Assembly (NCBI GenBank): GCA_049679965.1
Contig: JBAUGX010000176.1
Location: 1,592-65,591 of the forward strand
DNA: 64,000 nt
Source: Vicinamibacterales bacterium
GTDB taxonomy: Bacteria; Acidobacteriota; Vicinamibacteria; Vicinamibacterales; CAVVIG01
Direction of reading: 5' to 3'
The position numbers were made by a program, and so were the translations under genes. The notes below the pieces were generated by a model. It did not search any database and had not been told where the DNA came from. It saw only the letters and a list, made by a program, of their open reading frames with translations. Shown here piece after piece: positions 1-29,776 of the stretch. Position 1 is the stretch's first letter. The number at the start of each line of letters is the position of its first letter.

Positions 1-690
1 GCCCACAATCTCGTGTTCCGCTGGCGCACGGGCAATCGCCTGACGGCGCTCCTCGCCAACGTACCGCTGGTCTTTCCGGCGGCCATGTCGTTCTGCAAGT
101 ACCACCTGCTCCACCACCGCCACATGGGCGAGATCGATCTCGACGCAGACATTCCCGGCCCGACCGAAGCCCGGTTGGTTGGCCAGACGACAGCGGGCAA
201 GGCCACATGGCTCGCGGCGCTCGCGCTGGTCCTAGGCACGCTCCGCCCGCGCCGCATCAGGTCGGTGCCTTTTCTGGACGCGTGGACGGCGGCCAACATG
301 CTGTCTCAGGCCGGCGTCGTTCTGGCGATCGTGGCGTGGGTGGGCCTCGAGCCGCTCAAGTACCTGACCGCGTCCATGATGATGGCCGTGGGGCTGCACC
401 CGCTCGGGGCGCGGTGGATCCAAGAGCACTACGTGTTCAAGGCCGGACAGGAAACCTACTCCTATTACGGCCCGCTCAACCGCGTGAGCTTCAACGTGGG
501 CTACCACAACGAGCATCACGATCTCATCACGGTCCCGTGGCGGCGGTTGCCGCAGGTCAGGCGCGGCGCCCCGGAGTTCTACGACCATCTGCACGCCCAC
601 TGGTCGTGGACGCGGCTACTCGTACGGTTCCTCCGCGATCGCCAGGTCACGCTCTTCAGCCGGATCGTCCGGCCCCGATCGAGTTCCTGA
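1..690 (+). CDS. Sphingolipid Delta4-desaturase-like membrane desaturase (DEGS/DES1 type), 5' end cut by the window edge
   Basis: Frame +1 is open from base 1 ([14 protein letters not shown]...) to TGA 688-690. It has His boxes HLLHHRH and HNEHHD. The block [24 protein letters not shown] closely matches the human DEGS1 block [24 protein letters not shown] as I recall it. It is a paralogue of 11716-12693. Confidence 0.9.
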   Translation, partial: [229 protein letters not shown]

Positions 691-696
691 TCGACG

Positions 697-1074
697 TCAC
701 TGCACGGTAAACGTCAGCTCTTTCAATACCCGATCGCTGGCGTCGGTCACGGTCACGGTCCACTCGCCGGCCTTCCACACGGTCTTGTTGGCCCACGTGC
801 GCCACGGGTCGCCGCCGACCTGTAGCGTGGTGCTGGAGGTGCTGTCGCCAGTCTTCCAGGTCACTGTGACGGTGTCCGACCCGCTGCCGGTGAGTCTCAG
901 CCACAGGTAGACCTTGTCGTTCACGGCGAAGGTCGTGGTTTCGTCGGTGATGGCGCGATCCTGCACGCCCTTCCCGAGTTTGGCCTCGGCAACCTGCAGG
1001 CCCTGCGCATATACCGTCGGGAGCACGAATCCGCACGCGGCGACGAGGACAAGCAGCGAGAGCAGTCTCTTCAT
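697..1074 (-). CDS. Small secreted beta-rich protein (DUF2914-like)
   Basis: 125-aa ORF with signal peptide MKRLLSLLVLVAACGFVLPTVYAQ. AAGGAG lies upstream of ATG 1074. The C-terminal pattern (WRTW...GEWTVTV) resembles DUF2914 domains. Confidence 0.7.
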   Translation of the reverse strand: MKRLLSLLVLVAACGFVLPTVYAQGLQVAEAKLGKGVQDRAITDETTTFAVNDKVYLWLRLTGSGSDTVTVTWKTGDSTSSTTLQVGGDPWRTWANKTVWKAGEWTVTVTDASDRVLKELTFTVQ

Positions 1075-1098
1075 GACGATATCTCCTTATGACCGGCT

Positions 1099-2277
1099 GT
1101 GACGGCGGGGAGCCAGACACAGGTCGCAGCGAATCGCCACAAGCATGACATAACATATGGGCTCGTGATCGACGTCTCCCCCGCGTTCGGGCGCCGCGAC
1201 ATCGGCCGCTTCATCGACTATGCGCACGTGCGGAACAGCAGCGATCCTCATTGGATACCCCCGCTTCGCCTCGCCGAGCGCGAGCGGCTCTCACCCTCGC
1301 ACAATCCATTCTTCGCCCACGCTGATGTCGAGCTGCTTCTCGCGCGGCGCAACGGCCGGATCGTCGGGCGGATCGCCGCCATCGACGATCGCCTGCACAA
1401 CGACACGCACAGAGACGGCGTTGCGATGTTCGGGTTCTTCGAGGCCGAGGATCGACCCGCGGCCCAGGCGCTGCTCACGATGGTCGAGGCCTGGGCGAGG
1501 CGACGAGGACGTGCGCACGTCCGGGGCCCAATCAACCTGTCACTCAACGACAGTGCGGGGCTCCTGGTTGACGGGTTCGACTCCGATCCGATGGTGATGA
1601 TGCCGCACAACCCGCCTGCCTATGGCGAGTACATCGAGTCGGCCGGCTACCACAAAGTCAAGGATCTCTATGCGTGGCTCTACTCGATCGACGCCGAGGT
1701 ACCACAGGTCGTGGCCCGTCTCGCCGCGCGGGTGCGCGACCGCCAGGGCGTCCTCGTGCGGCCGCTGCAGCTCGCCGAGTTCGCGCGCGAGGTCGAACGG
1801 CTCCGAGAGATCTACTGCAGCGCATGGGAGCGGAACTGGGGCTTCGTGGCGCCGACGCCCGCCGAGTTCCGCCGGATTGCCGGCGAGATGAAGCAGATCT
1901 TCGATCCGCGGTGCGCTGTCTGCGCCGAAGCGAACGGACGGCCCGTCGCGTGCGCCATCGCCATTCCAGACATCAATCAAGCGCTCAAGGGCACCGATGG
2001 CCGTCTGTTTCCCCTTGGCCTGATTCGGCTGCTCGGACGCAAGCGGATCATCGATCAGGCGCGACTCCTGCTGTTCGGCGTCCTCGCGGAGTACCGCACC
2101 CTCGGGCTCTACCCGCTTCTCCTGTTCGAGCTTCACCGCCAGATGAAGGACACACGCTATCGTCGCGTCGAGTTCTCCTGGGTGCTCGAAGACAACCGCG
2201 ACATCAACCAGCCGGCCGAAATGGCCGGGGCAAGGCGCTACAAGACGTATCGCATTTATCAGAAGGCGCTGGCGTGA
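1099..2277 (+). CDS. GNAT-fold acyltransferase, candidate bacterial ceramide synthase (bCerS-like); function tentative
   Basis: 392-aa ORF from GTG 1099; an alternative GTG lies at 1165. The conserved pattern HWIPPLR...NPFF.HA...GRIVGRIAAIDD...FGFFE is typical of a large uncharacterised GNAT-like family. Its stop overlaps the next gene's start (GTGA at 2274-2277). Confidence 0.75.
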   Translation: MTAGSQTQVAANRHKHDITYGLVIDVSPAFGRRDIGRFIDYAHVRNSSDPHWIPPLRLAERERLSPSHNPFFAHADVELLLARRNGRIVGRIAAIDDRLHNDTHRDGVAMFGFFEAEDRPAAQALLTMVEAWARRRGRAHVRGPINLSLNDSAGLLVDGFDSDPMVMMPHNPPAYGEYIESAGYHKVKDLYAWLYSIDAEVPQVVARLAARVRDRQGVLVRPLQLAEFAREVERLREIYCSAWERNWGFVAPTPAEFRRIAGEMKQIFDPRCAVCAEANGRPVACAIAIPDINQALKGTDGRLFPLGLIRLLGRKRIIDQARLLLFGVLAEYRTLGLYPLLLFELHRQMKDTRYRRVEFSWVLEDNRDINQPAEMAGARRYKTYRIYQKALA

Positions 2278-3245
2278 GCGAGAGGAGCAGGCGCGTCGCC
2301 GTGACCGGCGCGACAGGTTTCATCGGCCGTCACCTGACGGCCCACCTCGTTTCGCAGGGCGCGGACGTGCGCGCGATCGTGCGCGCGCGCTCCGCGCATG
2401 CTGCGCCTCCAGGCGCGACCACCGTCCAGGCACCACTCGAAACGTCCGCGCTGACTGAGGCCTTTGCAGGCGTCGACGCCGTCGTGCATCTCGCCGGCAT
2501 CGTCTCGACGGTGCGCGAGCGCGAGTACATCGACGTCAACGTCCGCGGCACCCAGGCCGTCGCCGCGGCCGCCCGTGCCGCTGGCGCTCGCCTGATTTAC
2601 GTCTCCAGTCTCGCCGCGGCGGGCCCGGCGTCACCGGCCGCGCCAAGGCGCGAAGAGGATCCGTCAGCGCCCCTGACGCCGTACGGGCATAGCAAGCTCG
2701 CGGGCGAACGGCTGATCACCGCGATTGAAGGACTGCGGTGGACGATTCTCCGGCCGTCGGTCGTGTACGGCCCCGGCGACCGGGCCATGCTGCCGCTGTT
2801 TCGGTTTGCCCGCCTGGGCATCCTGCCACTCGTCGGCCGGCGCGACGCCGCGTACACCTTCATTTATGTCCACGACGTCGTTCGCGCTATCGACGCGGCG
2901 CTCGCCGCCCCAACGCTTCAGGACACGGTCTTCGTCGGCCATCCCCACCCCGTGACGGCTCGCGATCTCCTCACACGAATTCAAGCGGCGCTCGGCGGTT
3001 CTGCCCTGACGATTCCAATCCCGAGCGTCATCACCGATCTCGCGGCGATGGCCGGCGAGGCCGCCGGCAAGCTCATTGGCCGTCCGATGCTGCTGAACCG
3101 CTGGCGGAACGTGGAAATCTCGGCGGAGGGCTTCGTCTGCCACGTCGATCGCCTGCGCGATCGTCTCGGCATCGTCGCAGAGGTGGACCTTCAGCGGGGG
3201 CTCAACGAAACTGCGCGGTGGTACAGACAGCAGGGATGGCTGTAG
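2274..3245 (+). CDS. NAD(P)-dependent epimerase/dehydratase-family reductase (CerR-like, candidate 3-keto-ceramide/ketosphinganine reductase)
   Basis: The track ORF 1674-3245 is over-extended. In-frame GTG 2274 gives VSERSRRVAVTGATGFIGRHL, a Rossmann GxxGxxG motif at the N-terminus, and overlaps the upstream stop by 4 nt. Confidence 0.8.
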   Translation: MSERSRRVAVTGATGFIGRHLTAHLVSQGADVRAIVRARSAHAAPPGATTVQAPLETSALTEAFAGVDAVVHLAGIVSTVREREYIDVNVRGTQAVAAAARAAGARLIYVSSLAAAGPASPAAPRREEDPSAPLTPYGHSKLAGERLITAIEGLRWTILRPSVVYGPGDRAMLPLFRFARLGILPLVGRRDAAYTFIYVHDVVRAIDAALAAPTLQDTVFVGHPHPVTARDLLTRIQAALGGSALTIPIPSVITDLAAMAGEAAGKLIGRPMLLNRWRNVEISAEGFVCHVDRLRDRLGIVAEVDLQRGLNETARWYRQQGWL

Positions 3246-3254
3246 TGACTGAGT

Positions 3255-4460
3255 TCAGGATACCGCGACGCGCGTCGCGCCCAGCTCGGCGCCGACGCGG
3301 GCGAAAATATCGAGCGCGCGCGCGATCTGTTCGGGTGTGTGCGCCGCCGAGCAGCTGGCCCGCAGGACGCACTGGTCCTTCGGGCAACCGGGCGGCACGA
3401 TCAGGTTGACGTACAGGCCTTCGTGCATTAGCCGCTGCCAGAGCGCCATCGTCCTGTCTTCGTCGCCCGTGAGGATGGGGACGATCGGCGATTCGGTGTC
3501 GCCAATCACGAAGCCGCGCTCCTGCAGGCCCTGGCGCAGCCGCCGGACATTGGACCACAGTTGCTCGCGCAGCTCGGGATGCGCCCGCACGATCTTGACC
3601 GCAGCCCGGACGCCGGCGATATTCGACGGCGATCCGGACGCCGTGAAGACGTAGGCCCGCGCAAGGAAGTGCAGTGCCCGCAACTCGGGATGATCCGACA
3701 CGCACACGCCGCCGATGCCCGCGAGTGACTTTGAAAACGTGCTGACGACGAAGTCCACCCGGTCGAGCACGCCCTGCGCTTCGGCGCACCCGAACCCGGT
3801 CGGCCCGAACGTGCCGAGGGAGTGCGCTTCGTCCACCAGCAGGTACGCGCCGTACTGGCGGCAGACGTCGACGATTTCCCGCAGCGGCGCCACGTCGCCG
3901 CGAATCGAGTACAACCCCTCGCAGGCCACGAGGCGATTTCGCTCGCCCTTGGGCAGCCGCTCGAGCTTCTTCTGGAGACTTTCCGGCGAGTTGTGGCGAA
4001 AGCCAATGACCTGCGCGGGCGTCTGACGGGTCGCGTCGTAGATGCTCGCGTGGCTGTCGGCGTCAATCAGGATGACGTCGTCTTTCCCGCACAGCCCGCC
4101 AATGAGCGACAGATTGGCCTGATACCCAGTGCTGAAGATGATGGCGTGACGCTTGCCTGACCACTCGGCGAACTCCCGCTCGAGCGCTTCGTGCAGGGCC
4201 AGCGTGCCGTTGGCCGTGCGCGATCCGGTGGTTCCGGCGCCGTATTCGCTGATCGCGGCGCGCGCCGCCTCGATCACCGCCGGATGCATGGTGAGACCCA
4301 GATAGTTGTTCGAGCCGAACATCAACGTCGGCCGACCAGAGACGACGACCTCGCAGGGACCAAGCACACGGTCGATGACCGTCACGCCGGGTACCGCCGA
4401 CCCGGGCGCGAAGCCCGCGAGCCGCCGTTCAATGCTCCGTAACTTGTCGAGCAGGTCCAT
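3255..4460 (-). CDS. spt: Serine palmitoyltransferase-like alpha-oxoamine synthase (PLP-dependent)
   Basis: 401 aa with the GSNNYLGL motif. The PLP-lysine block VVSTFSKSLAGIGG resembles Sphingomonas SPT (GTFSKS) more than BioF or KBL. It is the last gene of an ACP / acyl-AMP ligase operon. Confidence 0.85.
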   Translation of the reverse strand: MDLLDKLRSIERRLAGFAPGSAVPGVTVIDRVLGPCEVVVSGRPTLMFGSNNYLGLTMHPAVIEAARAAISEYGAGTTGSRTANGTLALHEALEREFAEWSGKRHAIIFSTGYQANLSLIGGLCGKDDVILIDADSHASIYDATRQTPAQVIGFRHNSPESLQKKLERLPKGERNRLVACEGLYSIRGDVAPLREIVDVCRQYGAYLLVDEAHSLGTFGPTGFGCAEAQGVLDRVDFVVSTFSKSLAGIGGVCVSDHPELRALHFLARAYVFTASGSPSNIAGVRAAVKIVRAHPELREQLWSNVRRLRQGLQERGFVIGDTESPIVPILTGDEDRTMALWQRLMHEGLYVNLIVPPGCPKDQCVLRASCSAAHTPEQIARALDIFARVGAELGATRVAVS

Positions 4461-4471
4461 CCACTCTCCGT

Positions 4472-6160
4472 TTACGCGCGCAGTCCGGCCTGGTCGGCCG
4501 CGTCGCCCACGAGCCCGCCGCTCTCGTATTTCGCCTTGGTTGCCGCGCGCTGCACCTTGCCGCTGGTCGTCCGGCCGATCGTTCCACTCGGCACGGACAC
4601 GACGTCGTCGACGTACAGACCCAGCGCGTCGCCGACTCGCCGCCGAATCCCCTCGGCCAACGCCGCCGCGCCGACCGTGCCGCTCGGCTCCGCGACAATC
4701 ACCACGCGATCGGAGGCCCCTTGCCGGGTCGTGCCGAACGCCACCACCCGGCCCCGGCGAACGCCCGCCAATTCAGCGACCGCCCATTCCAGATCCTGCG
4801 GGTGGAACTTCCGGCCGTTGACGATGATGATGTCCTTCGCGCGGCCGCAAACAAACAGCTCGCCGTCAGACAGATAGCCCAAGTCTCCGGTGTGCAGCCA
4901 TCCGTTTCTCAGCGTCTCCGCGGTCAGGGCTGGGTCCTTATAGTAACCCAGCATGACCGACGGTCCCGACAGCACGATCTCGCCGACCTCGCGATCGGGC
5001 AGCTCCCGCCCGTCCTCACCCACGATGCGAATCGCGTGACCCGGCAAGGCGCGTCCGCAGCCGACGACGGGCACCGACGGTCCGCCCCCCACCGCCAGCG
5101 TGGCAAGCCGTCGCTTGGTGAGATCGTCGGACGCGATGTGCTCGACTCGAGGCAGCTGGCCGCGCGGTGGGAACGTCGCGGCAAGCACGTGTTCGGCCAG
5201 GCCGTAGCTTGGCAAGAAGCTCGTGGCTCGGAATCCCACCGGCGCAAAGCGTTCGGCGAACGCCATGAGCGTCGGGGCATGGATAGGCTCGGCCCCGCAC
5301 CCGGCGACTCGCCAGCACGAAAGATCCAGGCCTTCGAGATCGCGATCCTTCACGCGGCGGACCGACAGGTCGTACGCAAAATTGGGCGCGAAGCTGATGG
5401 TGCCGCGGTAGCGCGAGATCGCCTTCAGCCACTCGGCCGGGCGCTTGACGAACGCCTGCGGCGTCAGCAGGATGCCCGGCCGCTCGGAGTACAGCGGGCC
5501 GAGCGCCATGCCGACCAGACCCATGTCGTGATAGAGCGGCAGCCAGCTCAGGGCCGTGTCTTCGCTCGACGTGCCCAGCCCGGCCGGGCCGTTGATCGCA
5601 TCGACGTTGGCCGACAGATTCCGGTGAGACAGCGCCACGCCCTTTGGCGACGAGGTCGAGCCCGACGTGAACTGCACGAACGCGATGTCATCGAGCGACG
5701 GCATCGCGTCGGGCGGCAGTGCGGGCGCATCGAGGGCCTCGCGCGACAGGACGAGGGCCAGCTCCGGGCAGGTCGCCCGGAGCGCCTCGAAACCGCTTAC
5801 CAGTGCGGCGGCCGTCACGACAGCCTTGGCACCCGAGGCGCGCAGGATACCGGCTGTGAGATCGAAATACCGATCCAGACCGCCGGCTGTCACCGGTGGA
5901 TACAGCGATGCAGGCACCAGGCCGGCCATCGACGCGCCGAACAGCGACGTCAGGAAGGGCTCGGCATCGGCGAGCACTAGCGCGACCACGTCGCCGCGCC
6001 GCAGGCCGGCCTCGACGAGCGAGCGCCCGACGCCGAACGACGCCTGCTGCAGTTCCGCGTACGACCGGCGGGTTTCGACCCCGCCGTCGACAAAGGTGTA
6101 GCCCTGACCGGAACGCGCGGCCCGATCGAGCGCTTCAGGGAGCGTGCGGAACGTCATCAC
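4472..6160 (-). CDS. Fatty acyl-AMP ligase / acyl-ACP synthetase (adenylate-forming enzyme)
   Basis: 562 aa with AMP-binding motifs (FTSGSTSSPKGV, YGLAEH, TGDLG). The start (GTG 6160 or ATG 6157) abuts the ACP stop codon at 6161-6163. Confidence 0.85.
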   Translation of the reverse strand: MMTFRTLPEALDRAARSGQGYTFVDGGVETRRSYAELQQASFGVGRSLVEAGLRRGDVVALVLADAEPFLTSLFGASMAGLVPASLYPPVTAGGLDRYFDLTAGILRASGAKAVVTAAALVSGFEALRATCPELALVLSREALDAPALPPDAMPSLDDIAFVQFTSGSTSSPKGVALSHRNLSANVDAINGPAGLGTSSEDTALSWLPLYHDMGLVGMALGPLYSERPGILLTPQAFVKRPAEWLKAISRYRGTISFAPNFAYDLSVRRVKDRDLEGLDLSCWRVAGCGAEPIHAPTLMAFAERFAPVGFRATSFLPSYGLAEHVLAATFPPRGQLPRVEHIASDDLTKRRLATLAVGGGPSVPVVGCGRALPGHAIRIVGEDGRELPDREVGEIVLSGPSVMLGYYKDPALTAETLRNGWLHTGDLGYLSDGELFVCGRAKDIIIVNGRKFHPQDLEWAVAELAGVRRGRVVAFGTTRQGASDRVVIVAEPSGTVGAAALAEGIRRRVGDALGLYVDDVVSVPSGTIGRTTSGKVQRAATKAKYESGGLVGDAADQAGLRA

Positions 6161-6421
6161 CTAGGTCGACCGTCCCTCGGTGAGCTGCGCGACCTGCGCC
6201 ACGACCTGCGCGACCGTCCGCGTTGTCGCCACGTCGTTGAGGGGAATCGACACGTCGAACCGGTCCTCCAGCTCCGCGATGACCTCGAGGACCTGAAGCG
6301 AGTCGAATCCCAGGTCGGCGACCAGATCGCTGCTGAGAGTCGGCTCGATCGGACGACGGCTCACCCGCTTGAGCACGTCGATCACGCCTTCTTCGATTTG
6401 GGCGGATGCCGGTGGAGACAT
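6161..6421 (-). CDS. Acyl carrier protein
   Basis: 86 aa with the phosphopantetheine attachment motif LGFDSL. It lies directly upstream of the acyl-AMP ligase. Confidence 0.85.
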   Translation of the reverse strand: MSPPASAQIEEGVIDVLKRVSRRPIEPTLSSDLVADLGFDSLQVLEVIAELEDRFDVSIPLNDVATTRTVAQVVAQVAQLTEGRST

Positions 6422-6469
6422 GTAAGGAATGCGTTCAAGAATAGCACCCGGGCGCGGGCCAACGCCACC

Positions 6470-7978
6470 TCACGGCTCGCGCTGACGGACCGGGATCGAG
6501 CGCGGGACAATCGGCTGCGTGCCGGCCAGCCGCCCGACGTCGGCGGCAATGCCCGCGGCCGCATCGGGCTCGGGACGCTCCACCTGCTCGTGATATTCCT
6601 CGTCGGCGTTCACCTCCCACAGGTCGTGCCGCTCCCCAAACAGGTTCCGCACCGCCAGCATGGCCGTGAGCATGGAATGATCCTGGTTGTTGTACTTGTG
6701 CATCCCGTTGCGACCGACCAGCTGCAGGTTGGCAAACCGCTTGAGCCACTCCCGGATCGTGGTCAGCGCCTCGAGATATCCATCGTCGTACACGGGGTAG
6801 GCCTTGAAGACCCGCAGCACCGTCGCATCGGTGACCGAGCCGGGCCGGACCAGTCCGATGGCCACGATCTCCCGCTTGGCAAGATCAATGAGGGCCTGGT
6901 CAGACATTCGCCACAAATCGTCGCCCTCCGAGCAGAAGTACTCAAGGCCCAGGCACGTGAGCCTGGTGTCGGGCACCATCTCCGGGCTCCAGTTCTTGAA
7001 ATTCTGGACGCGGCCCACCCGGACACTTGGTTCATGGATGTAGATCCAGTTGTCGGGGAACACATGCTCCTGATCGACGATCAGCGCGACGGTGAGGAAG
7101 TCGCGATACTTCAACCGCTCGGCAGCCGCACGGACCGTATCAGGTGCGGCGGGGGTCAGCGTTCTCACGAGGTGCCGGACGGGCATCGTCGAGATGACCT
7201 GCGAGGCCGGCTGCTCGCGCCGCCCGCCACGGTCCTCGATCACGGCCGTATGGATGCGCTCGCCGTCGTGCCGTAATTCCACCACGCGCGACTCGAGCGT
7301 CACCCGTCCGCCCGCGGCGACGATGCGATCGCGGCATTCCTCCCACATCATGCCGGGCCCCAGCCGCGGGTACTCGAACTCGTGAATCAGCGTCTTGATC
7401 TGTCCTTCACGCCCGACGCCGAGCATGCTGAGCACGGCGGTCCATAGCGACAGGCCCTTGATCCGCTGCGCCGCCCACTGCGCGCCAATCTGGCTGCAGG
7501 GAATACCCCACACCTTCTCCGTATAACTCTTGAAGAACATGTCGAACAGGCGCCGGCCGAAACGGTTGCAGATCCAGTCCTCGAGACTGACCTCCGGACG
7601 GACTGGAGAGATTCTGGCGCGTGCGTAACTGGCCAGAACGGCCACGCTCGTGATCAGTCCCAGATTGGTGACCACGTTGAGAGCCTTGAGCGGGTAATCG
7701 AAGAAGCGGCCACGATAGTAGATGCGGGAGAGCCTCGGCCGCTGCAGCAGATCCTTGCCGAGCAACTCGTGCCAGAGCTCGCGGACCGCGGTCGCCTTCG
7801 TGAAGAACCGGTGACCGCCGATGTCGAACCGAAAATTCTTGTAGACGACCGTCCTGGCCAGGCCGCCGACCTGCGTGTCCCCATCGAAAACGTCCGGCCG
7901 CACGCCGCGCTTGGTCAACTCGTACGCCGCCGTCAGCCCGGCAGGACCCGCGCCAATAACGACGATGGGATCGTTCAT
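6470..7978 (-). CDS. NAD(P)/FAD-dependent oxidoreductase (amine-oxidase / UDP-galactopyranose-mutase-like fold), function unknown
   Basis: The track ORF is trimmed to ATG 7978, giving MNDPIVVIGAGPAGLTAAYEL (a dinucleotide-binding GxGxxG motif at the N-terminus). It is the first gene of the ACP-ligase-Spt operon. Confidence 0.8.
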   Translation of the reverse strand: MNDPIVVIGAGPAGLTAAYELTKRGVRPDVFDGDTQVGGLARTVVYKNFRFDIGGHRFFTKATAVRELWHELLGKDLLQRPRLSRIYYRGRFFDYPLKALNVVTNLGLITSVAVLASYARARISPVRPEVSLEDWICNRFGRRLFDMFFKSYTEKVWGIPCSQIGAQWAAQRIKGLSLWTAVLSMLGVGREGQIKTLIHEFEYPRLGPGMMWEECRDRIVAAGGRVTLESRVVELRHDGERIHTAVIEDRGGRREQPASQVISTMPVRHLVRTLTPAAPDTVRAAAERLKYRDFLTVALIVDQEHVFPDNWIYIHEPSVRVGRVQNFKNWSPEMVPDTRLTCLGLEYFCSEGDDLWRMSDQALIDLAKREIVAIGLVRPGSVTDATVLRVFKAYPVYDDGYLEALTTIREWLKRFANLQLVGRNGMHKYNNQDHSMLTAMLAVRNLFGERHDLWEVNADEEYHEQVERPEPDAAAGIAADVGRLAGTQPIVPRSIPVRQREP

Positions 7979-8085
7979 GTTCAAGGGTAAAGGATACAAC
8001 GTGATCGGGACCCGTGTACACTGGACCGACATGGCCACGCGGGCGATGGCAACTTCCAGATGAACCCTGGAAAGATGGTTTCGAT

Positions 8086-8952
8086 ATGAAGAAGATCGCA
8101 CTCGCGCTGGCGCTCGTCCTGCTCGCGCCGATCCAGGCCATCCCCCAGACGCGGAGCTTCCTGTGGAAAGCCACGAAAGGACCGGGGGCTGTCTACCTCG
8201 TTGGGTCGCTGCACCTCCTCACCAAGGACTACTACCCGCTCGCCCCGGCGCTCGATGCAGCATTCAAGGATGCGGACCTGCTCGTCGAGGAGGCCGACCT
8301 CGGGGAGATGCTGTCGCCACAGTCGCAGCTCGCCGTGGTCACCCGCGGCATGCTGCCGGCCAACCAGTCGCTCGACCAGCTGGTCTCCCCCGCCACGTTC
8401 GCGCTCGTGACGAAGCGCGTCGCCGCCCTGGGCGCGCCGATCGAGCCGCTCAAGCGCTTCAAGCCGTGGATGATTGCCCTCACGGTTCTGGGACTCGAGT
8501 GGCAGAAGGCCGGCTTCGAACCCGAGCTTGGCCTCGACAAGCACTTCTACGATCGCGCGAGGGCCGAGGGCAAGATGGTGCAGGGGCTGGAGACAACCGA
8601 CTTTCAGATCTCGCTATTTGACTCCATGACGCGCGCGCAGCAGGATCGGCTGCTGGCCGAGTCGCTCGAGGCCTCCCAGACCGAGATGGCCAGCGTCCGG
8701 CAACTGGCCGACGCGTGGCGCGGCGGTGACGCCGCCACGGTCGAGCGGATCGTGCTGGGCGATCTCAGCGACGACCGCGAGCTGTATCAGAGCCTCGTGG
8801 TCAACCGCAATCGTAGCTGGCTGCCCAAGATCGAAGCGCTGTTCGCCCGCCGCGGCCGCGCCTTCGTGGTCATCGGTGCGGCGCATCTGATCGGTCCCGA
8901 CGGCCTGCTCGCCGTCCTCAAGGCGAAGGGCTACGCAGTCGAGCAAATGTGA
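8086..8952 (+). CDS. TraB/GumN family protein (secreted)
   Basis: ATG 8086 gives the signal peptide MKKIALALALVLLAPIQA. GSLHLL and GAAHLIGPDGL blocks are typical of TraB/GumN. The stop overlaps the next start (GTGA at 8949-8952). Confidence 0.8.
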   Translation: MKKIALALALVLLAPIQAIPQTRSFLWKATKGPGAVYLVGSLHLLTKDYYPLAPALDAAFKDADLLVEEADLGEMLSPQSQLAVVTRGMLPANQSLDQLVSPATFALVTKRVAALGAPIEPLKRFKPWMIALTVLGLEWQKAGFEPELGLDKHFYDRARAEGKMVQGLETTDFQISLFDSMTRAQQDRLLAESLEASQTEMASVRQLADAWRGGDAATVERIVLGDLSDDRELYQSLVVNRNRSWLPKIEALFARRGRAFVVIGAAHLIGPDGLLAVLKAKGYAVEQM

Positions 8953-10301
8953 ACGGCGTTTCTGTCCTCGTCGCTGGTGGGGGTCTGGCCGGGTTGACGG
9001 CGGCGCGCGACCTGATCGCGATGGGCGCCACGGTCACGGTCATCGACGCGCGCGACCGCGTCGGCGGTCGCGTGTGGACGATCCGTGACGGCTTCGCCGA
9101 CCGGCAGCACGCGGAGGCCGGCGGCGACCTCATCGACGAATCGCAGCTCGAGATCTGCGGCCTCTGCAGGGAACTGGGGCTGCCCCTCGCGCGCATCCTG
9201 CGCGACGGCTGGGGCTACGTCCGACCGAACGGATCCGGGCAGCCGCGCATCGCGGGTCGGGGCGCCACCGGCGGATGGGATCGTCTGCCGGGGCTTCTGG
9301 AGAACGTGATCCACCGGTATGTTCTGGCTGACAAGCGATGGGACTCGCCGATCGTGGCCGACCTCGCCCGCCAATCGGTCGCCCAGTGGCTGAACGAGAT
9401 CAGAGCGGACGAAGAACTGAGAGGGACTGTCAGCGGCTTGCGCGGATTCTTCCTGGCCGACCCCGAAGATCTGTCACTGCTCGCGCTCGTGGATCAGTTC
9501 GCGGACAGCAACGGCTCGTGGCCGGGGCGCATGTACCGGATCAAGGGCGGCAACGATCAGCTGGCCTCGGCCCTTGCCGCTCCCCTTGGCGGTCGCCTGC
9601 GACTCTCAACCGAGCTGGTCGCCGTGACGCACCGGGGCCGCACGGTGAAGGCCAGCCTCAAACACGCTGGTGGTGCGTCGCACGTCGAATGCGACTACCT
9701 CGTCCTGGCGCTCCCGGCGACGACGCTGTGCCGCGTGCCGATCACGCCGGCGCTGCCCGCCCAGCAGCACGATGCCATCGCGAAACTGCGGTACGGCCGC
9801 GCGACGAAAACGCTGCTGCAGTTCTCGCGACGGTTCTGGCGCGCGCCCGGACGCCCGCGGGCGTTCGGATCGGCGCTGCCGTTCGGCGCGATCTGGGAAG
9901 GCGCCGAAGAGCAGCGCGGCGGCGGCGGCATCCTGACGCTGCTGGCCGGCGGGAGCGCCAGCGACGCCACGCAGAAGATGTTTGCGGCCAACGGCCCGCT
10001 GCAGATGATCGAAGCGCTCGAGTGGCTGGGATCGCGCCGCGCCGAGCTGGTCGCATCGCGCGTGGTGTCGTGGGAGGCCGATCCGTTCGCCCGCGGCGGC
10101 TATGCCTATTTCGATCCCGCCTTCGACCCAGCGCTCCGATCCTGGCTCGCGCGTCCCGCCGGCCGCTTGTTTTTCGCCGGCGAGCACACCAGTTTCCGCT
10201 GGCAGGGTTATATGAACGGCGCCGTCGAGAGCGGCCGGCGCGTGGCCGCAGAGATTGCCGCATCCCACAACCTCTCTGAGATCGGTAAGCCTAAAGTCTG
10301 A
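8949..10301 (+). CDS. Flavin-containing amine oxidase family protein
   Basis: 450 aa with an N-terminal VLVAGGGLAGLTAA...DARDRVGGR FAD-binding motif and a C-terminal FAGEHTS motif. The stop TGA 10299-10301 lies inside the heptamer repeat. Confidence 0.85.
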   Translation: MNGVSVLVAGGGLAGLTAARDLIAMGATVTVIDARDRVGGRVWTIRDGFADRQHAEAGGDLIDESQLEICGLCRELGLPLARILRDGWGYVRPNGSGQPRIAGRGATGGWDRLPGLLENVIHRYVLADKRWDSPIVADLARQSVAQWLNEIRADEELRGTVSGLRGFFLADPEDLSLLALVDQFADSNGSWPGRMYRIKGGNDQLASALAAPLGGRLRLSTELVAVTHRGRTVKASLKHAGGASHVECDYLVLALPATTLCRVPITPALPAQQHDAIAKLRYGRATKTLLQFSRRFWRAPGRPRAFGSALPFGAIWEGAEEQRGGGGILTLLAGGSASDATQKMFAANGPLQMIEALEWLGSRRAELVASRVVSWEADPFARGGYAYFDPAFDPALRSWLARPAGRLFFAGEHTSFRWQGYMNGAVESGRRVAAEIAASHNLSEIGKPKV

Positions 10302-10314
10302 AGTCTGAAGTCTG
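10294..10314. repeat. Perfect tandem heptamer (AAGTCTG) x3
   Basis: Read directly: aagtctg aagtctg aagtctg. It spans the oxidase stop codon and the 5' end of the permease reading frame. Confidence 0.95.
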
Positions 10315-11647
10315 GCGGCCAATTCGGAAGACTGAACTGCCTCAACTCCACCGCGCGATCGGCCTGCGCCAGCTGACCGCGGGCATCATCAACGCCACGA
10401 TCGGCGCCGGCATCTTCGTGCTGCCGGCCGCCGTGGCGGCGGGCCTGGGCCCCGCAGCCCCGCTGGCGTACCTCGCGTGCGCCGCGCTGATGGCACTCAT
10501 CGTCTTGTGTTTTGCCGCCGCCGGCAGCCGCGTCTCGCTGACCGGCGGCCTCTATGTCTATATCGAGGTGGCGTTCGGGCCGCTCATCGGCTTTCTGGCC
10601 GGCGTGCTGTACTGGCTGATGGCGGCCTTCGCGGCGGCCTCGGTCGCCAGCGCCCTTGCCGGATCGCTCGGCGTGACGTGGGCGGGCCTCAACAGCGCGA
10701 TCCCGAGGGGCGTGGTGCTCGTCGCGCTGTTCGCGGTGCTGGCGGCCGTCAACGTGCGCGGCGTGACGGCGGGGACGAGACTGGTCGAGGTCCTGACGGC
10801 CGCCAAACTGCTCCCGCTGGTCGTGCTCGTCGTTTCGGGCGCGTGGTTCGTACGCCTCGAGTACCTGCAGTGGTCGTCGCTGCCCTCCCCGTCGGCGGTC
10901 GGCGCGAGCTCGCTCGTCCTTTACTACGCGTTCGCTGGTGTCGAGGTCGCGCTCGCGCCGAGCGGCGAGATTCGCGATCCGGCGCGCACCGTGCCGCGTG
11001 CCGTGCTGCTTGCGCTGGCCATCACGACCACACTGTACCTGCTGGTTCAGGGAGTCGCACAAGGCCTGCTCGGGCCTTCCCTGTCGACCTATGCGGCGGC
11101 GCCGCTGGCCGAGGCGGCCTCCCGCGTGTTGGGCCCCGTCGGACGGGTCCTGGTTCTCTCGGGTGCGGCCGTCTCCATGTTCGGCTACGTGTCGGGCGAC
11201 CTGCTCGGCAGCCCGCGCGCGTTGTACGCGCTCGGGCGAGACGGCCTGCTCCCGGCTGCCCTCGGGCGCATCCATCCGCGCTTCCACACGCCGCACATTG
11301 CCATCATCACGTACGCCGTGCTGGTCGCGGCGCTCGCCATCAGCAGCAGCTTCACGACACTCGCCGTGCTCTCGAATGTCGCCGCGCTCACACTGTATCT
11401 GCTGTGTGTCGCGGCGTCGTACGAGCTGGCGCGCCGCGATGTCCGCATGGCAGGAGCGCCCTTCGCGTTGCCCGGCGGGCCGACAATTCCAGTCATGGCG
11501 GCGGTAGTCATTCTCTGGCTTCTCTCACAGGCGACCTTCCGCGAGTTCGCCGTCGAAGCCACCGTCCTGGCCGCCGCAACGTTGTTCTACCTCGCGCGGC
11601 GGCGCACCCAGCAGGACGCCGGGCGCCATGAGGCCGCAGTTCCGTGA
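10298..11647 (+). CDS. APC-family amino acid/polyamine permease; start codon uncertain
   Basis: The first canonical start is GTG 10418. However, the conserved TM1 block LRQLTAGIINATIGAGIF lies upstream of it in the same frame, which is open from 10295. There is no ATG/GTG/TTG in 10295-10417. CTG 10298 forms a CTGA stop/start overlap with the oxidase. Confidence 0.75.
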   Translation: MKSEVWRPIRKTELPQLHRAIGLRQLTAGIINATIGAGIFVLPAAVAAGLGPAAPLAYLACAALMALIVLCFAAAGSRVSLTGGLYVYIEVAFGPLIGFLAGVLYWLMAAFAAASVASALAGSLGVTWAGLNSAIPRGVVLVALFAVLAAVNVRGVTAGTRLVEVLTAAKLLPLVVLVVSGAWFVRLEYLQWSSLPSPSAVGASSLVLYYAFAGVEVALAPSGEIRDPARTVPRAVLLALAITTTLYLLVQGVAQGLLGPSLSTYAAAPLAEAASRVLGPVGRVLVLSGAAVSMFGYVSGDLLGSPRALYALGRDGLLPAALGRIHPRFHTPHIAIITYAVLVAALAISSSFTTLAVLSNVAALTLYLLCVAASYELARRDVRMAGAPFALPGGPTIPVMAAVVILWLLSQATFREFAVEATVLAAATLFYLARRRTQQDAGRHEAAVP

Positions 11648-11715
11648 GCCGGCCGTCAGCACCACCCGAGACGAAGCGCTTGCGCCGACCATTCCAGGCG
11701 AGGTACGGTGTCTGC

Positions 11716-12693
11716 ATGCCGCAGGACGACTACATCCGCGTGACCTACGGCGAACCCCACGCCACGCGCGGTCGACAGATGCTGGCGGCGCACCCCGACC
11801 TGCGCTCGTTGGCCGGCCCGATGCCGTCGAGCGCCCTGTGGGTCGTCGCGCTGACGGCGGCCCAGATGGCGCTGGCGGTATTCGTGGGTCCGATGAGCTG
11901 GATGGTCTGGCTGCCCTGTGCCTATGTCGCCGGCGCCACGATCGATCACGCGCTGTGGGCGATGATCCACGACTGCTCGCACAACCTCGTGTTTCGGTGG
12001 CGTACGGGGAACCGCCTGGTGGCGATTTTCGCGAACATTCCGCTCGTCTTCCCCGCGGCCATCGCGTTCTGCAAGTACCACCTCCTCCACCATCGCCACA
12101 TGGGCGACCCGGAATTGGACGCCGGCGTGCCTGGGCCGACCGAGGCCCGCGTGGTGGGTCACTCCGGTGCGATGAAAGCCCTGTGGCTTGCGGGCACGTT
12201 CTTCGTACAGGGGGTCGTCCGGGTCAGACGGTTCACCACCATTCCCTTCCTTGATTTCTGGACATCGATGAACATCATCTTCCAGCTTGGAGCGATGTTC
12301 CTCTTGTACCGGTGGGCAGGCTGGCCGGCTCTCAAGTACCTGACGACCTCGAGCATCTTCGCCATTGGCCTCCACCCGCTCGGGGCGCGGTGGATTCAGG
12401 AGCACTTCGCCCTGGTCCCGGGTCAGGAGACGTACTCGTACTATGGCCCGCTCAATAAGGTGTGCTTCAATCTGGGCTACCACAACGAGCACCACGACAT
12501 CGTGACCGTTCCGTGGGCGCACCTCCCGGAGATTCGCCGTCGCGCTCCTGAGTTCTACGACGGACTGCACTCCTACGATTCCTGGACGGCGCTGCTCATC
12601 CGCTTCGTCCGCGAGTGGAACATCACCCTCTTCTGCTACATCATCAGGCCTGCGCGGCGCGCAGGCACCGCGCAGACACCAGCGAACCGATAG
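11716..12693 (+). CDS. Sphingolipid Delta4-desaturase (DEGS/DES1-like), full length
   Basis: ATG 11716 gives [32 protein letters not shown], matching the DEGS1 N-terminal Lipid_DES block ([27 protein letters not shown]). It has His boxes HDCSHN, HLLHHRH and HNEHHD. Confidence 0.9.
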   Translation: [325 protein letters not shown]

Positions 12694-12698
12694 CCTTC

Positions 12699-13544
12699 TC
12701 AGCGGGCGGCAAAGGTGTCGCAGCGAGCCGGATCGCCGGACTCCATCCCACGCCGGAACCACGCGACGCGCTGTTCCGACGTGCCGTGCGTGAAGCGCTC
12801 TGGCGCCACGCGGCGCCCACCCATCCGTTGAAGCCGGTCGTCACCGATCGCGGCCGCCGCGTTCAGGGCCTCTTCGGCGTCCCCCGGTTCGAGCTCGACC
12901 TGGCCTGCTTGGAAGCGCCCTTGCTGGGATGCCGCATGCCCCCAGATGCCGGCGTAACAATCCGCCTGCAGCTCGAGCGCGACTGACGCGCTGTTCGCCC
13001 CCGCGCGATCGCGCCCGACGCGAGCATTCGTGCCGAGCAGATTCTGCACATGGTGACCGAATTCGTGGGCGATGACGTAGGCCTGCGCGAACTCACCGGG
13101 CGCACCGAATCGCCGGGACAACTCGTCGAAGAAACCGAGATCGAGATACACCTTGCGGTCGGCTGGACAATAGAAGGGACCGGTGGCCGCATCCGCGGCG
13201 CCGCAGGCCGACTCGACCGCGTCTGTGAACAACACCACGACCGTACGCTCGTAGCGAGGGCCAAGGACTTGTGCCCACGTGGCCTGGGTGTCCCTGGCCA
13301 CGGCATCCACGAAGTTGACTCGATACTCTTCGCCGGGCGAGGTGGCGCGAGGCGGCTGGCCGGCGCTTATGGGATCGACTGGCAAGGCCCCGCTATCGAG
13401 CAACGAGAGAAAGTCCGTACCTGTGGCGTAACTGAGCAGAGCCAGGATCACGATGCCGCCGATACCGAGAGGCACGCCGCCGCGCAGCCCGGAACGGGAG
13501 CGGCGTTCTTCGATGTTGTCGCGATCTCCGGCAGACCACTTCAT
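12699..13544 (-). CDS. YpfJ-family neutral zinc metallopeptidase
   Basis: Trimmed to ATG 13544 (MKWSAGDRDNIEERR...), followed by one TM segment. HEFGHH zinc motif and GPFYCP block are present. Confidence 0.85.
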   Translation of the reverse strand: MKWSAGDRDNIEERRSRSGLRGGVPLGIGGIVILALLSYATGTDFLSLLDSGALPVDPISAGQPPRATSPGEEYRVNFVDAVARDTQATWAQVLGPRYERTVVVLFTDAVESACGAADAATGPFYCPADRKVYLDLGFFDELSRRFGAPGEFAQAYVIAHEFGHHVQNLLGTNARVGRDRAGANSASVALELQADCYAGIWGHAASQQGRFQAGQVELEPGDAEEALNAAAAIGDDRLQRMGGRRVAPERFTHGTSEQRVAWFRRGMESGDPARCDTFAAR

Positions 13545-13662
13545 CAGGGAGTCCCGCTCACGAGCGCCGGCAGCGCGTTCGGCATCAAGAGGTTGAGCTT
13601 GGCCTGGGCTTCGGACACGAGCGGTCCACGCGCCCCGCACGCTGGAACCGCCCGGGTGCTGC

Positions 13663-15528
13663 TCATGCCATCGCGTCGATCTCGTGCTCGAGCCGGGTGA
13701 CCAGCGTGTCGAGCTGATGGACGACCGCACGCACGGTTTCCGGCCGGCTGAGATCCACGCCGGCGCGCTTGAGCAGCGGCATTGGATGGTCGCTGCCGCC
13801 CGACTTGAGCAGCGTGAGATAGCGATCGATCGCCTCGGCGCGATCCCCGCTGGGCCCGCCGCGGAGCTGCCTCATGAGCTCGGCGCTCGATGCAAAACAC
13901 GTCGCATATTGGTAGACGTAGTACGGCGTGCTGTAGAAGTGCGGGATCCGCGACCACGTGACGCGTCCGAGATCATCAAACGCGACGGCGTCGCCGTGAT
14001 ACGCCTTGAGCAGGTCGACGTAGATCTCGCTGAGCGTCTCGGCCGTTACCGGGCGCCCCTGCTCGACCAGGCGGTGGGCCTGGAGCTCGTAGTCCGCAAA
14101 GAGCACCTGGGTGTAGAAGGTCCCGACGATGCCGTCGATCGCGTGCTGCAGGAGCACGATTCGCTCGCGCTCGTTGGTCGCCTGCGCGAGCATGTACTCA
14201 AGGAAGAGCGCCTCGCTCAGCGTCGAGGGCACCTCGGCCACGAAAATGGTGTACGCGGAGTACACGAACGGCTGGTGGGCGTTCGCGAGCAGCGTGTGCA
14301 TCGAATGCCCCATCTCGTGCGCGAGCGTGAACGCGGCGTCGAGCGTGTCGTTGTGATTGAGCAACATGTACGGATACACGCCGTACACCGGAGCCGAGTA
14401 CGCGCCGCTGCGCTTGCCCGTGTTCTCGTACACGTCGATCCATCGACCCGCCAGCACCTCCCGCACCTGCCGCTGATAGTCGGCGCCAAGCAGTGCCACC
14501 GAGGGCGGCAGCCACTGCACGACCTTATCGTAGGGATACTTCGCGTCGTACTCGACGAGGGGAATCACCGCGTCGTAGGAATGGTAGGTCTCGAGGCCCA
14601 GCACGCGTTTCCGCAGGCGGTGATAGCGGCGGAGCGGCTCGGTGCCCGCCTTTGTCGTCTCAATCAGGTTCTCCACGACCGACGGCGGGATGTTGTTGCC
14701 ATGGAGCGCCGCCTCGAGGGTCGATCCATAGCCGCGTGACTGCGCGAGAAACCAGTCGCGCTCGAGCACGGCATGGTAGAGGGACGCGTACGTGTTGAGG
14801 CTCGCCTCGTAGAGCTTGTGATACTCGGTGAACACGGTGGCCCGGTCGCTCTGGGACCGATTGGTCGCGAGAATGGCGCGGTACTGTCCGTACGTCAGCA
14901 CGACGTCGGCGCCCGCGGAGAGCCGAACCGTCGGATGCTTGAGGTCGGCTGTCGAGAGCGCCGAGTAGGCGTCATGTGGAGTTGACGCGAAGCGGCTCGC
15001 GAGCGACAGGAGATGCTCGCCTTTGTCGTCGAGCACGTGCTCCTGCTGGCGGTACAGATCCTCGACCGCAAACCGGTAGACAGCCAGCTCGGCGTCTTTC
15101 GCCATCCACGCCTGAACAGTGGCGAGCGGAATCTTCAACAGTTCGGGATTGAACCAGGCCGCGGCCTGACCCGCCCTGGCAAAGAGCACCTGCACCTGCT
15201 GGCGCTTGCCGTTGATCTGGTTGTCCCGCTGATCCTGGTCGTAGCACAGCGAGGCGAAATACCACACCTTGTAACTGAGCTGTCCGATGTCGTCCGACAG
15301 TTTGAGCGCCGTCAGCAGGCGATCGGGCCCATCGCCAAGCGTGCCTCGCAGCGACGCGTATGCCGCAATCTGCGTGTCCAGGTGGTCGTAGGCCGCCTTC
15401 CACGCGTTCCAGTCCGAAAAAATAGGCGCGAGACTCCACTTGAAGCGATCGGCAATGGCATCGCGGTCACGGAGCTCTGGAGCGGCGGGGGCTGCTGCGG
15501 GTGCGAAAGAATCCATTGACGGAATCAT
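13663..15528 (-). CDS. pepF: Oligoendopeptidase F (M3 family)
   Basis: It has the HEMGH zinc motif and M3B-like length. ATG 15528 forms an ATGA overlap with the upstream gene's stop; ATG 15516 is an alternative start. Confidence 0.85.
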   Translation of the reverse strand: MIPSMDSFAPAAAPAAPELRDRDAIADRFKWSLAPIFSDWNAWKAAYDHLDTQIAAYASLRGTLGDGPDRLLTALKLSDDIGQLSYKVWYFASLCYDQDQRDNQINGKRQQVQVLFARAGQAAAWFNPELLKIPLATVQAWMAKDAELAVYRFAVEDLYRQQEHVLDDKGEHLLSLASRFASTPHDAYSALSTADLKHPTVRLSAGADVVLTYGQYRAILATNRSQSDRATVFTEYHKLYEASLNTYASLYHAVLERDWFLAQSRGYGSTLEAALHGNNIPPSVVENLIETTKAGTEPLRRYHRLRKRVLGLETYHSYDAVIPLVEYDAKYPYDKVVQWLPPSVALLGADYQRQVREVLAGRWIDVYENTGKRSGAYSAPVYGVYPYMLLNHNDTLDAAFTLAHEMGHSMHTLLANAHQPFVYSAYTIFVAEVPSTLSEALFLEYMLAQATNERERIVLLQHAIDGIVGTFYTQVLFADYELQAHRLVEQGRPVTAETLSEIYVDLLKAYHGDAVAFDDLGRVTWSRIPHFYSTPYYVYQYATCFASSAELMRQLRGGPSGDRAEAIDRYLTLLKSGGSDHPMPLLKRAGVDLSRPETVRAVVHQLDTLVTRLEHEIDAMA

Positions 15529-29423: not shown

Positions 29424-29425
29424 GG

Positions 29426-29776
29426 TTACACCGTTGCGGAGAAGCTGTCGATGGCATCGGCTTCCCGGTCGTAGCACTCGAACACGGAGATGAGCTTGGT
29501 GATCGTCAGCAGAACCGTGGTCCGCGGCGTCAGACGGGACAGCTTGAGGGACCCGCCTTTGTTCCTGGTGGTCGCGTACGCCTGGACCAGTTCGCCCAGG
29601 CCCGCGCTGTCGAGCGATGACACGCCGCCCAGGTCCACGACGAGCTTCCGCCGGCCCTGCAGAATCAGACTTCGCACTTTGTCCTTCAGCATCACGTCGC
29701 CGCCATGATTCAGCGTGAGGTCACCGCTCACGACCAGGACCACGACGTCGCCGACCAGCCGTTCGTCGAGCTGCAT
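29426..29776 (-). CDS. STAS-domain anti-sigma-factor antagonist (SpoIIAA/RsbV-like)
   Basis: 116 aa with the conserved LDSAGLGELV phospho-serine motif. Confidence 0.85.
   Translation of the reverse strand: MQLDERLVGDVVVLVVSGDLTLNHGGDVMLKDKVRSLILQGRRKLVVDLGGVSSLDSAGLGELVQAYATTRNKGGSLKLSRLTPRTTVLLTITKLISVFECYDREADAIDSFSATV

Follow-up and report, generated by a model that had tools for sequence, protein, structure and literature searches.

Gene Content of the Locus

The window analyzed here is a stretch of 64,000 nt of contig JBAUGX010000176.1 from a Vicinamibacterales bacterium (Acidobacteriota), and its open reading frames (ORFs) were mapped for positions 1–16000. Its left end carries genes for a serine palmitoyltransferase (Spt), an acyl carrier protein (ACP), a fatty acyl-AMP ligase, a tandem-GNAT acyltransferase, and a short-chain dehydrogenase/reductase (SDR), together with two desaturases of the DEGS type, DES_a and DES_b (table 1). 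Judged from homology, there is a good probability that this is a sphingolipid region of the Vicinamibacterales which makes ceramide-type lipids.

The genes are arranged in two divergent units, as described in an initial annotation made from the DNA letters alone. On the minus strand, the ligase gene abuts the stop of the ACP gene, and 11 nt separate the ligase stop from spt, in which the STFSKS block is present. On the plus strand, the GNAT and SDR genes are coupled by a GTGA overlap. The desaturases which the same annotation had placed at both ends of the region are also present, both with FA_desaturase and Lipid_DES domains above the Pfam cut-offs. Its proposal of a four-gene minus-strand operon holds for the order and the junctions of the genes, and the co-transcription of the FAD gene is uncertain, as this gene is separated from the ACP gene by a 48-nt gap with a weak terminator-like hairpin, no better than chance.

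Table 1. Genes mapped at the left end of the window
Feature	Position	Strand	Support or remark
DES_a, DEGS-type desaturase/hydroxylase	1..690	+	C-terminal 229 aa of a 308-aa protein; the window edge cuts the rest
DUF2914 protein, 125 aa, hydrophobic N-terminus	697..1074	-	Pfam DUF2914, E 1.2e-11
Tandem-GNAT N-acyltransferase, candidate bacterial ceramide synthase (bCerS/CerS/YghO family)	1099..2277, likely 1165..2277	+	
Extended SDR, epimerase/dehydratase family, candidate ceramide (3-keto) reductase CerR	2274..3245	+	Pfam Epimerase, E 1.4e-41
Spt, PLP-dependent alpha-oxoamine synthase	3255..4460	-	NCBIfam NF047599, PDB ranking
Fatty acyl-AMP ligase, candidate AasR-type acyl-ACP synthetase	4472..6160	-	Pfam AMP-binding
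ACP, AcpR-like, DSL phosphopantetheine site	6161..6421	-	Pfam PP-binding, E 1.1e-13
FAD-dependent protein, PRK07208 family	6470..7978	-	NCBIfam NF005548
TraB/GumN-family protein with signal peptide	8086..8952	+	Pfam TraB_PrgY_gumN, E 9.7e-71
Flavin amine oxidase	8949..10301	+	Pfam Amino_oxidase, E 1.1e-57
Amino acid permease, between amine oxidase and DES_b	10418..11647	+	Pfam AA_permease_2, E 3.2e-37
DES_b, full-length DEGS-type Delta4-desaturase/C4-hydroxylase homolog, 325 aa	11716..12693	+	Pfam Lipid_DES and FA_desaturase

A second contig, L091, is 99.92% identical to positions 1–11074 of the window, and a gene caller run on it returned products of 392, 323, 401, 561, 86, and 502 aa, the same as in the window. 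The GC content at third codon positions is 0.81–0.88 in every gene of the locus; given this range and the thousands of homologs, none of the genes is a chance ORF. The nearest homologs of several of them carry the names Vicinamibacterales or "Acidobacteria bacterium RIFCSPLOWO2_12_FULL_65_11". The search for promoters and terminators in positions 1–13000 gave nothing beyond chance level, and no Rfam family reached threshold in the window.

Spt, the Ligase, and the ACP

The product of spt is, on sequence criteria, a serine palmitoyltransferase (SPT) and not a BioF, KBL, or ALAS enzyme. In detail, it scores 515.3 bits with the NCBIfam equivalog model for SPT (NF047599, cut-off 500), and it remains below the cut-offs of the other oxoamine synthase models (BioF 343 against 426, KBL 311 against 460, ALAS 245 against 339). 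The ranking of PDB matches gives the same order: bacterial SPTs come first (362–370 bits), followed by cysteate acyltransferase (232), KBL (231), and BioF (about 207). With the model cut-off passed and the solved SPTs in first place, the SPT-like character which had been read from the PLP-lysine block is borne out. In the alignment with the Sphingomonas SPT 2jgt, DADSHASIYD, VDEAHSLG, TFSKS, and the arginine of LR(A/C)S are all kept, so that the catalytic His, the Asp-x-x-His, the PLP-binding Lys, and the Arg are conserved.

Genes for a dedicated ACP (PP-binding) and a putative acyl-ACP synthetase (AMP-binding) abut spt. The phosphopantetheine site of the ACP reads GFDSLQ, and the ligase has an alternative start at the ATG of position 6157. 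The gene order ACP–ligase–Spt is the same in loci L001–L008, L097, and L180.

All these proteins have counterparts in the contiguous E. coli cluster yghO-aasR-cerR-acpR-spt. The full set of five is found in 4068 of 5426 complete E. coli genomes, and PGAP names the last gene spt. The window proteins match the five products, in this order, with 36%, 39%, 31–32%, 35%, and 45% identity. The ligase value applies to 552 aa of the FAAL at the aasR position (ECD_02851); the values are from tblastn, with BLASTP used for the SDR (32%, 1e-39). In BL21(DE3), the ligase ECD_02851, the ACP ECD_02853, and the SPT ECD_02854 form 3-oxosphinganine via acyl-AcpR (PMC9386255).

The Acyltransferase and the SDR

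The GNAT gene had been described as encoding a 392-aa GNAT-fold acyltransferase at 1099–2277. The family is confirmed and the start is not. Homologs are about 370 aa long and their alignments begin at query residues 22–24, residues 1–20 are disordered in an AlphaFold model of pLDDT 93.3, and an in-frame GTG lies at position 1165; for these reasons the gene is probably 1165–2277, with a product of 370 aa. A start at 1099 would leave a gap of only 24 nt to the DUF2914 gene, which lies directly upstream in divergent orientation, has an AAGGAG ribosome-binding site before its ATG, and is found at the same position in L002–L006 with 75–78% identity.

The structural model shows a tandem GNAT fold, with the clavulanate tandem GNAT, MshD, and glucosamine N-acetyltransferase as the top PDB entries (TM 0.55–0.62). 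The respective sequence search of the PDB gave no match at E values up to 1, and thus no solved bCerS. Homologs were sought by tblastn in plasmid and chromid records. The identity is 44% to Roseomonas mucosa, 37% to Streptomyces, 36% to YghO of E. coli, and 34% to Sphingomonas parapaucimobilis, over about 94% of the length each, and in all four the homolog is located inside an Spt cluster. In Roseomonas and Sphingomonas it occupies the cerS position, beside lptF/lptG paralogs and nucleotidyltransferases. The same arrangement surrounds cerS (CC_1154) in the CC_1152–CC_1156 region of Caulobacter (PMC11324152).

With the protein encoded at the cerR position in S. parapaucimobilis, also an SDR, the window SDR shares 34% identity (2e-38). 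The Sphingomonas and E. coli cluster SDRs share 35% identity with each other, which is similar to the distance of the window SDR from either. The NCBIfam models that match the window SDR best are generic ones, and their scores (HpnA, 95.7 bits) fall far short of the cut-offs. The GNAT and SDR proteins are thus specifically similar (31–44% identity) to the products of genes which occupy the cerS and cerR places in known sphingolipid clusters, and on this strong but indirect evidence they very likely belong to the ceramide synthase and ceramide reductase families.

Conservation of the Cluster

To follow the linkage of the GNAT gene, each GTDB species was represented by one genome and scanned with an alignment of 14 GNAT sequences as the query, and the best 80 loci were taken. 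These belong to more than 15 phyla, among them Acidobacteriota, Gemmatimonadota, Zixibacteria, Eisenbacteria, Bdellovibrionota, Myxococcota, Ignavibacteria, Chloroflexota, Planctomycetota, and Verrucomicrobiota. An Spt-like gene is present at 57 of the 80, where the centres of the two genes lie a median of 1.2 kb apart. Of the 49 loci which extend 3 kb or more to both sides, 39 have Spt. The SDR is adjacent to the GNAT gene in 44 of the 80, and Spt and SDR are both found in 43.

Within the order the cluster is syntenic: the five-gene core is kept in Vicinamibacterales at 63–87% GNAT identity. In L002–L006 (85–87%) the region is kept including the DUF2914 gene, with the FAD gene in L002–L005 and the TraB and amine oxidase genes in L002 and L003. 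L005 and L006 have an ortholog of DES_a in the corresponding place (91–95% identity). In the more distant L001, L007, and L008 (63–70%) the core and the TraB gene are kept, and no FAD protein or desaturase was found within 10 kb. Loci L002 (11136–11815), L003, and L004 carry a toxin-antitoxin-like pair between the GNAT and SDR genes, formed by an 83-aa gene (75 aa in L003 and L004) and a PIN-domain gene.

The cluster had been regarded as unusual for an Acidobacteria-like genome. This is overstated, as close homologs of the GNAT protein and of the desaturases number in the thousands in soil metagenomes, many of them named Vicinamibacterales. Spt-like genes or Spt-bCerS-CerR clusters are reported or predicted in up to 40 phyla (PMC11334938), and the core described here is of this known kind.

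DEGS-Type Desaturases

The two desaturases are 64% identical over 225 aa, and in both the Lipid_DES domain is N-terminal to FA_desaturase. DES_b scores 33.3 bits with Lipid_DES (PF08557, cut-off 23) and 82.5 with FA_desaturase (PF00487), and the full-length DES_a on L091 scores 23.9 and 79.1, respectively. The three histidine boxes, HDCSHN (HETAHN in DES_a), HLLHHRH, and HNEHHD, match the di-iron-binding patterns HxxxH, HxxHH, and HxxHH; their histidines are invariant across nine bacterial homologs and align with the boxes of human DEGS1. DES_b shows 33% identity to human DEGS1 over 316 aa (E 3e-58), which is an approximate figure. Hundreds of close homologs are annotated by JGI as sphingolipid delta-4 desaturase or 4-desaturase/C4-monooxygenase, and a single metagenome scan gave at least 494 confirmed relatives in this bacterial DEGS-like family. 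The PDB search with DES_b returned one spurious lectin match and no DEGS chain.

DEGS-like genes are placed among ceramide genes in several different ways. In L097 the order is GNAT-DES-SDR, divergent from Spt-ligase-ACP; in L099–L101 the desaturase gene adjoins GNAT or SDR; and in L113 (47% identity) the order is DES-Spt-GNAT-SDR. In an uncultured Verrucomicrobiae metagenome-assembled genome (MAG), one strand of L045 (5847–11143) carries DES, FA_hydroxylase, an Spt-like gene, a CDP-alcohol phosphatidyltransferase, and GNAT, with no SDR nearby. This operon is an independent case of a DEGS gene linked to bacterial ceramide genes.

A different context is found at L095 (10001–14671) and L181 (639–10030), where a DES ortholog (65–70% identity) lies by glycosyltransferases of the GT4, PF04488 (Gly_transf_sug), and GT2 types and an MsbA-like ABC exporter. 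It hints at the assembly and export of glycosphingolipids in those genomes.

The other explanation to be weighed is that the core makes ceramide and the DEGS genes are acyl-lipid or other membrane desaturases which happen to lie nearby, with a saturated dihydroceramide as the product. One point for it is the rarity of the linkage: when 42 metagenomic loci with a DEGS-like gene and a length of 6 kb or more were inspected, Spt, GNAT, or SDR genes turned up nearby in only about 4, and about 38 (42–55% identity) had none within the available flanks. A general rule that DEGS-like genes are linked to Spt is rejected on this count. As these genes mostly stand alone, either the family may not be restricted to sphingolipids or the genes are usually unlinked. 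In the window itself, DES_b follows the amine oxidase and permease genes outside the ceramide operons, and no specific NCBIfam model exists for the DES proteins. Against a chance neighborhood, both copies carry Lipid_DES, a domain specific to the sphingolipid desaturases; five or more different layouts, from two phyla, have a DES gene inserted into a ceramide operon; and bacterial sphingolipid genes are often unlinked anyway (PMC11334938). The chance explanation is considered unlikely.

A sphingolipid is the best-supported substrate for the DES proteins on present sequence evidence, with the genomic linkage speaking for action at C4-C5, and the evidence leans moderately to the view that the DEGS homologs modify the ceramide-type lipids of this locus. 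A Delta4-desaturation step had been proposed. The part which stands is the presence of DEGS-type enzymes in ceramide clusters; Delta4-desaturation and C4-hydroxylation are inseparable by sequence.

Candidate Head-Group Genes Left of the Window

The DNA immediately left of window position 1 is available as L091 (11075–19084). After the rest of DES_a it carries genes for a PMT_2-type glycosyltransferase, a small methyltransferase-like protein, and a PAP2 protein. From there onward, it contains a fusion of a phosphoenolpyruvate (PEP) mutase-like protein with a nucleotidyltransferase, a two-subunit phosphono-/sulfopyruvate decarboxylase, a transaminase of the 2-aminoethylphosphonate (AEP) type, a second nucleotidyltransferase, and a TonB-dependent receptor. 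The same cassette flanks the cluster in L002–L005.

The PAP2 protein passes the cut-offs of PAP2_3, PAP2, and PAP2_C, families which include the fungal inositol phosphorylceramide (IPC) synthase and the animal sphingomyelin synthases. Its gene neighbors the GNAT gene in L001, L180, and L091. By analogy with known systems, the cassette suggests a phospho- or phosphono-sphingolipid as the product. Bacteriovorax stolpii makes phosphonosphingolipids (PMC8942020), and the likeness lies in the AEP-like cassette found here by the ceramide genes; in Bacteriovorax MAGs, GNAT homologs also adjoin Spt. The gene set is also similar to that of the clusters for tailoring of the cell surface with AEP, which comprise a Ppm-PntC fusion, Ppd, and AEP transaminase. 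It differs from the phosphonosphingolipid and AEP systems in that the transferase is of the PAP2 type and not a CDP-alcohol phosphatidyltransferase, and in that the Ppm motif is altered.

The motif EDKxxxxxNS separates PEP mutase from the rest of the isocitrate-lyase superfamily (PMC6697681). In the PEP-mutase-like protein this motif reads EDNVFPKRCS, and its assignment as a confirmed Ppm is rejected on this test. Two model scores fall just short of their cut-offs as well, with 286 bits against 319.55 for TIGR02320 and 350 against 360.8 for the AEP transaminase. In view of the motif and these narrowly missed cut-offs, the phosphonate head group is treated as conjectural.

Flavoenzymes and Other Neighboring Genes

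The FAD protein starts at an ATG giving MNDPIVVIGAGPAGL and scores 709.9 bits with NF005548/PRK07208, a family named "hypothetical protein". Its best solved relatives are eukaryote-type UDP-galactopyranose mutases, with only 75 bits, and the bacterial Glf model TIGR00031 gives 26.5 bits against a cut-off of 303.75. In relatives at 70–89% identity (L002–L005, L180, and a JGI contig), a few kb at most separate the gene from those for ceramide synthesis. It is not by the cluster in L001, L007, and L008, nor, among the best 80 GNAT loci, at those outside the order; a homolog with 63% identity lies in an unrelated context in L179. As a conserved member of the pathway it is accordingly rejected outside the Vicinamibacterales.

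In L180 (8448–9928) and the JGI contig, a ketoacyl-ACP synthase and a second ACP are inserted between the FAD gene and the ACP-ligase-Spt operon. These may supply a special acyl chain for the sphingolipid.

The amine oxidase has monoamine and putrescine oxidases as its best PDB matches; its gene overlaps the TraB gene by 4 nt and precedes the permease gene. The TraB gene is found near the cluster in L001, L002, L003, L007, L008, L097, and L180 (about 60–80% identity), and the amine oxidase gene only in the closest relatives, L002 and L003.

The initial annotation also considered a possible tailoring of the lipid by the flavoenzymes, which might oxidize the amine of the long-chain base or desaturate the chain. 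The FAD gene lies 48 nt upstream of the ACP gene on a common strand and persists near the cluster down to 70% identity, and the amine oxidase and DES_b genes share a strand, all of which speaks for such a role. The gaps in the distribution of the FAD gene speak against it, as do the UDP-galactopyranose mutases nearest to the FAD protein, which are non-redox enzymes, and the generic character of the amine oxidase, which resembles MAO and putrescine oxidase and is coupled to the TraB/GumN and permease genes. The proposal thus finds little backing and is improbable. The amine oxidase, permease, and TraB proteins are most likely neighbors only. The PRK07208 flavoprotein is a lineage-specific neighbor, for which, if it has a role, the supply of sugar nucleotides would fit better than redox tailoring of a lipid.

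The rest of the window consists of housekeeping genes, such as those of threonine synthase, homoserine kinase, adenylosuccinate synthetase, RNase III, signal peptidase, and MacB/HlyD transporters. Two adjacent genes for SpoIIE/PP2C-type phosphatases, one with FHA and GAF domains and the other with HAMP, lie beside the RNase III gene on the minus strand (27789–32928). On the plus strand, a 784-aa ORF (39947–42301) has DUF2784 at residues 226–333 as its sole match and may be an over-extended call in GC-rich DNA, and a MacB/FtsX permease gene comes after a row of three genes for HlyD-type membrane-fusion proteins (43330–48370). The minus strand of 58352–63787 contains a large MacB-type permease gene (58352–61018) and then an ORF of 901 aa (61082–63787).

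Proposed Pathway and Comparison with Known Systems

In the pathway of Caulobacter crescentus and other Proteobacteria, ceramide is made by Spt, AcpR, AasR, bCerS/CerS (CCNA_01212/CC_1154), and CerR (CCNA_01222/CC_1164), which are encoded by CC_1162–1165 and CC_1154. The initial annotation had recognized the same protein families in the window, and Spt, the ACP, and the candidate acyl-ACP synthetase, GNAT-type synthase, and epimerase-family reductase are indeed all present. The identities to the cluster genes of E. coli, Sphingomonas, and Roseomonas are 31–45%, and the logic of an ACP-ligase-Spt operon is the same. The differences are the host, an acidobacterium, and the position of the GNAT-SDR pair, which is divergent from the Spt operon; the adjacency of GNAT and SDR is as in Streptomyces and most other phyla. 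In contrast to the Caulobacter-type clusters, there are no lptF/lptG paralogs or ceramide-phosphoglycerate genes here. The additions are the DEGS-type desaturases and, just outside the window, the PAP2-type transferase with the phosphonate-like cassette.

According to the proposed pathway, the acyl-AMP ligase would activate a free fatty acid and load it onto the dedicated ACP. Spt would condense the acyl-ACP with serine to 3-ketosphinganine. The tandem-GNAT acyltransferase would then N-acylate the long-chain base, and the SDR would reduce the 3-keto group to yield dihydroceramide. The order of acylation and reduction is disputed even for Caulobacter. DES_a and DES_b, as membrane di-iron enzymes, may act at C4-C5 of the sphingoid base and introduce a Delta4 double bond, a 4-hydroxyl, or both, giving ceramide and/or phytoceramide. 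Addition of a head group of the phospho or phosphono type is the probable task of the PAP2_3/PAP2_C transferase, which resembles IPC or sphingomyelin synthases; the adjacent PEP-mutase-like protein, decarboxylase, aminotransferase, and cytidylyltransferases would supply this group.

The desaturases resemble DEGS1/DES1 and DEGS2/DES2 in the architecture of their domains, in having three histidine boxes, and in their length of about 320 aa. The occurrence of two paralogs, about 64% identical here, is as for DES1 and DES2 in animals. The difference from the eukaryotic enzymes is the bacterial host and the pairing with a bacterial ceramide synthase and reductase, which are non-homologous (convergent).

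Besides the mostly solitary DEGS-like genes and the altered mutase motif described above, several points weigh against the ceramide pathway as proposed. Every enzymatic step is derived from homology. The ligase falls below the cut-off of the NCBIfam FAAL model NF006624 (491 bits against 600), and the GNAT protein matches no NCBIfam model. The link of the GNAT and SDR to bCerS and CerR of Caulobacter is drawn through the orthologs at the respective cluster positions elsewhere. Caulobacter CerR is reported to be periplasmic (PMC11087976), whereas the SDR of the window begins at the Rossmann motif and has no evident signal peptide. Finally, the eukaryotic DEGS enzymes receive their electrons from cytochrome b5, and no partner of this kind is evident here.

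It is very unlikely that the oxoamine synthase takes alanine, glycine, or cysteate and leads to 1-deoxyceramides, sulfonolipids, or another N-acyl amino-alcohol: related synthases do make capnine-type sulfonolipids, cysteate-C-fatty acyltransferase is among the PDB matches (232 bits), environmental bacteria make abundant 1-deoxy- and sulfono-ceramides (PMC11334938), and a similarity to sulfopyruvate decarboxylase is also seen in the decarboxylase encoded left of the window, but the SPT equivalog cut-off is passed, the solved serine-using SPTs score about 130 bits above the cysteate enzyme, the arginine that binds the serine carboxylate is conserved with the other active-site residues, and the head-group transferase encoded nearby needs a C1 hydroxyl.

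More tentatively, and with the odds against it as a whole, the locus could encode a hybrid route to eukaryote-like sphingolipids, in which the convergent bacterial core is followed by true homologs of two late enzymes of the eukaryotic pathway, namely the DEGS pair and an IPC- or sphingomyelin-synthase-like PAP2 transferase, which may attach a phosphonate head group. The products of such a route would be ceramides based on sphingosine or phytosphingosine, with an AEP-like head group made via a non-canonical variant of PEP mutase.

Implications for Acidobacteriota and the DEGS Family

In a lipidomic study of soil, ceramides and phytoceramides were correlated with an amplicon sequence variant of Vicinamibacteraceae in dry soil, and the question was raised whether Acidobacteriota make sphingolipids at all (PMC9969633). 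The search of the literature on Acidobacteria with Spt or sphingolipids gave no genomic or biochemical report beyond this correlation, which is circumstantial evidence for the production of ceramide. The locus provides a concrete gene set for that question, in a dominant soil lineage.

Two features go beyond the published picture that was found. The first is the integration of DEGS-type genes into bacterial ceramide operons. The second, in an abundant soil order, is the probable coupling of the cluster with a PAP2 head-group transferase and a phosphonate-like cassette. The statement that Spt is all that bacteria have in common with the eukaryotic sphingolipid pathway (PMC11087976) is qualified by DEGS homologs embedded in bacterial ceramide operons.

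If the proposed role of these genes is true, the assignment of sources for d18:1 and t18:0 ceramides in soils and sediments would change, and under the hybrid route much of the "fungal" ceramide and phytoceramide signal of soils could be bacterial. Bacterial DEGS enzymes would also become available for mechanistic work on a family from which no chain was met in the PDB sequence search. They would also serve as a further data point for how sphingolipid desaturation evolved. In the case of the hybrid route, the DEGS family would have a deep bacterial history, with a bearing on the origin of eukaryotic sphingolipid metabolism.

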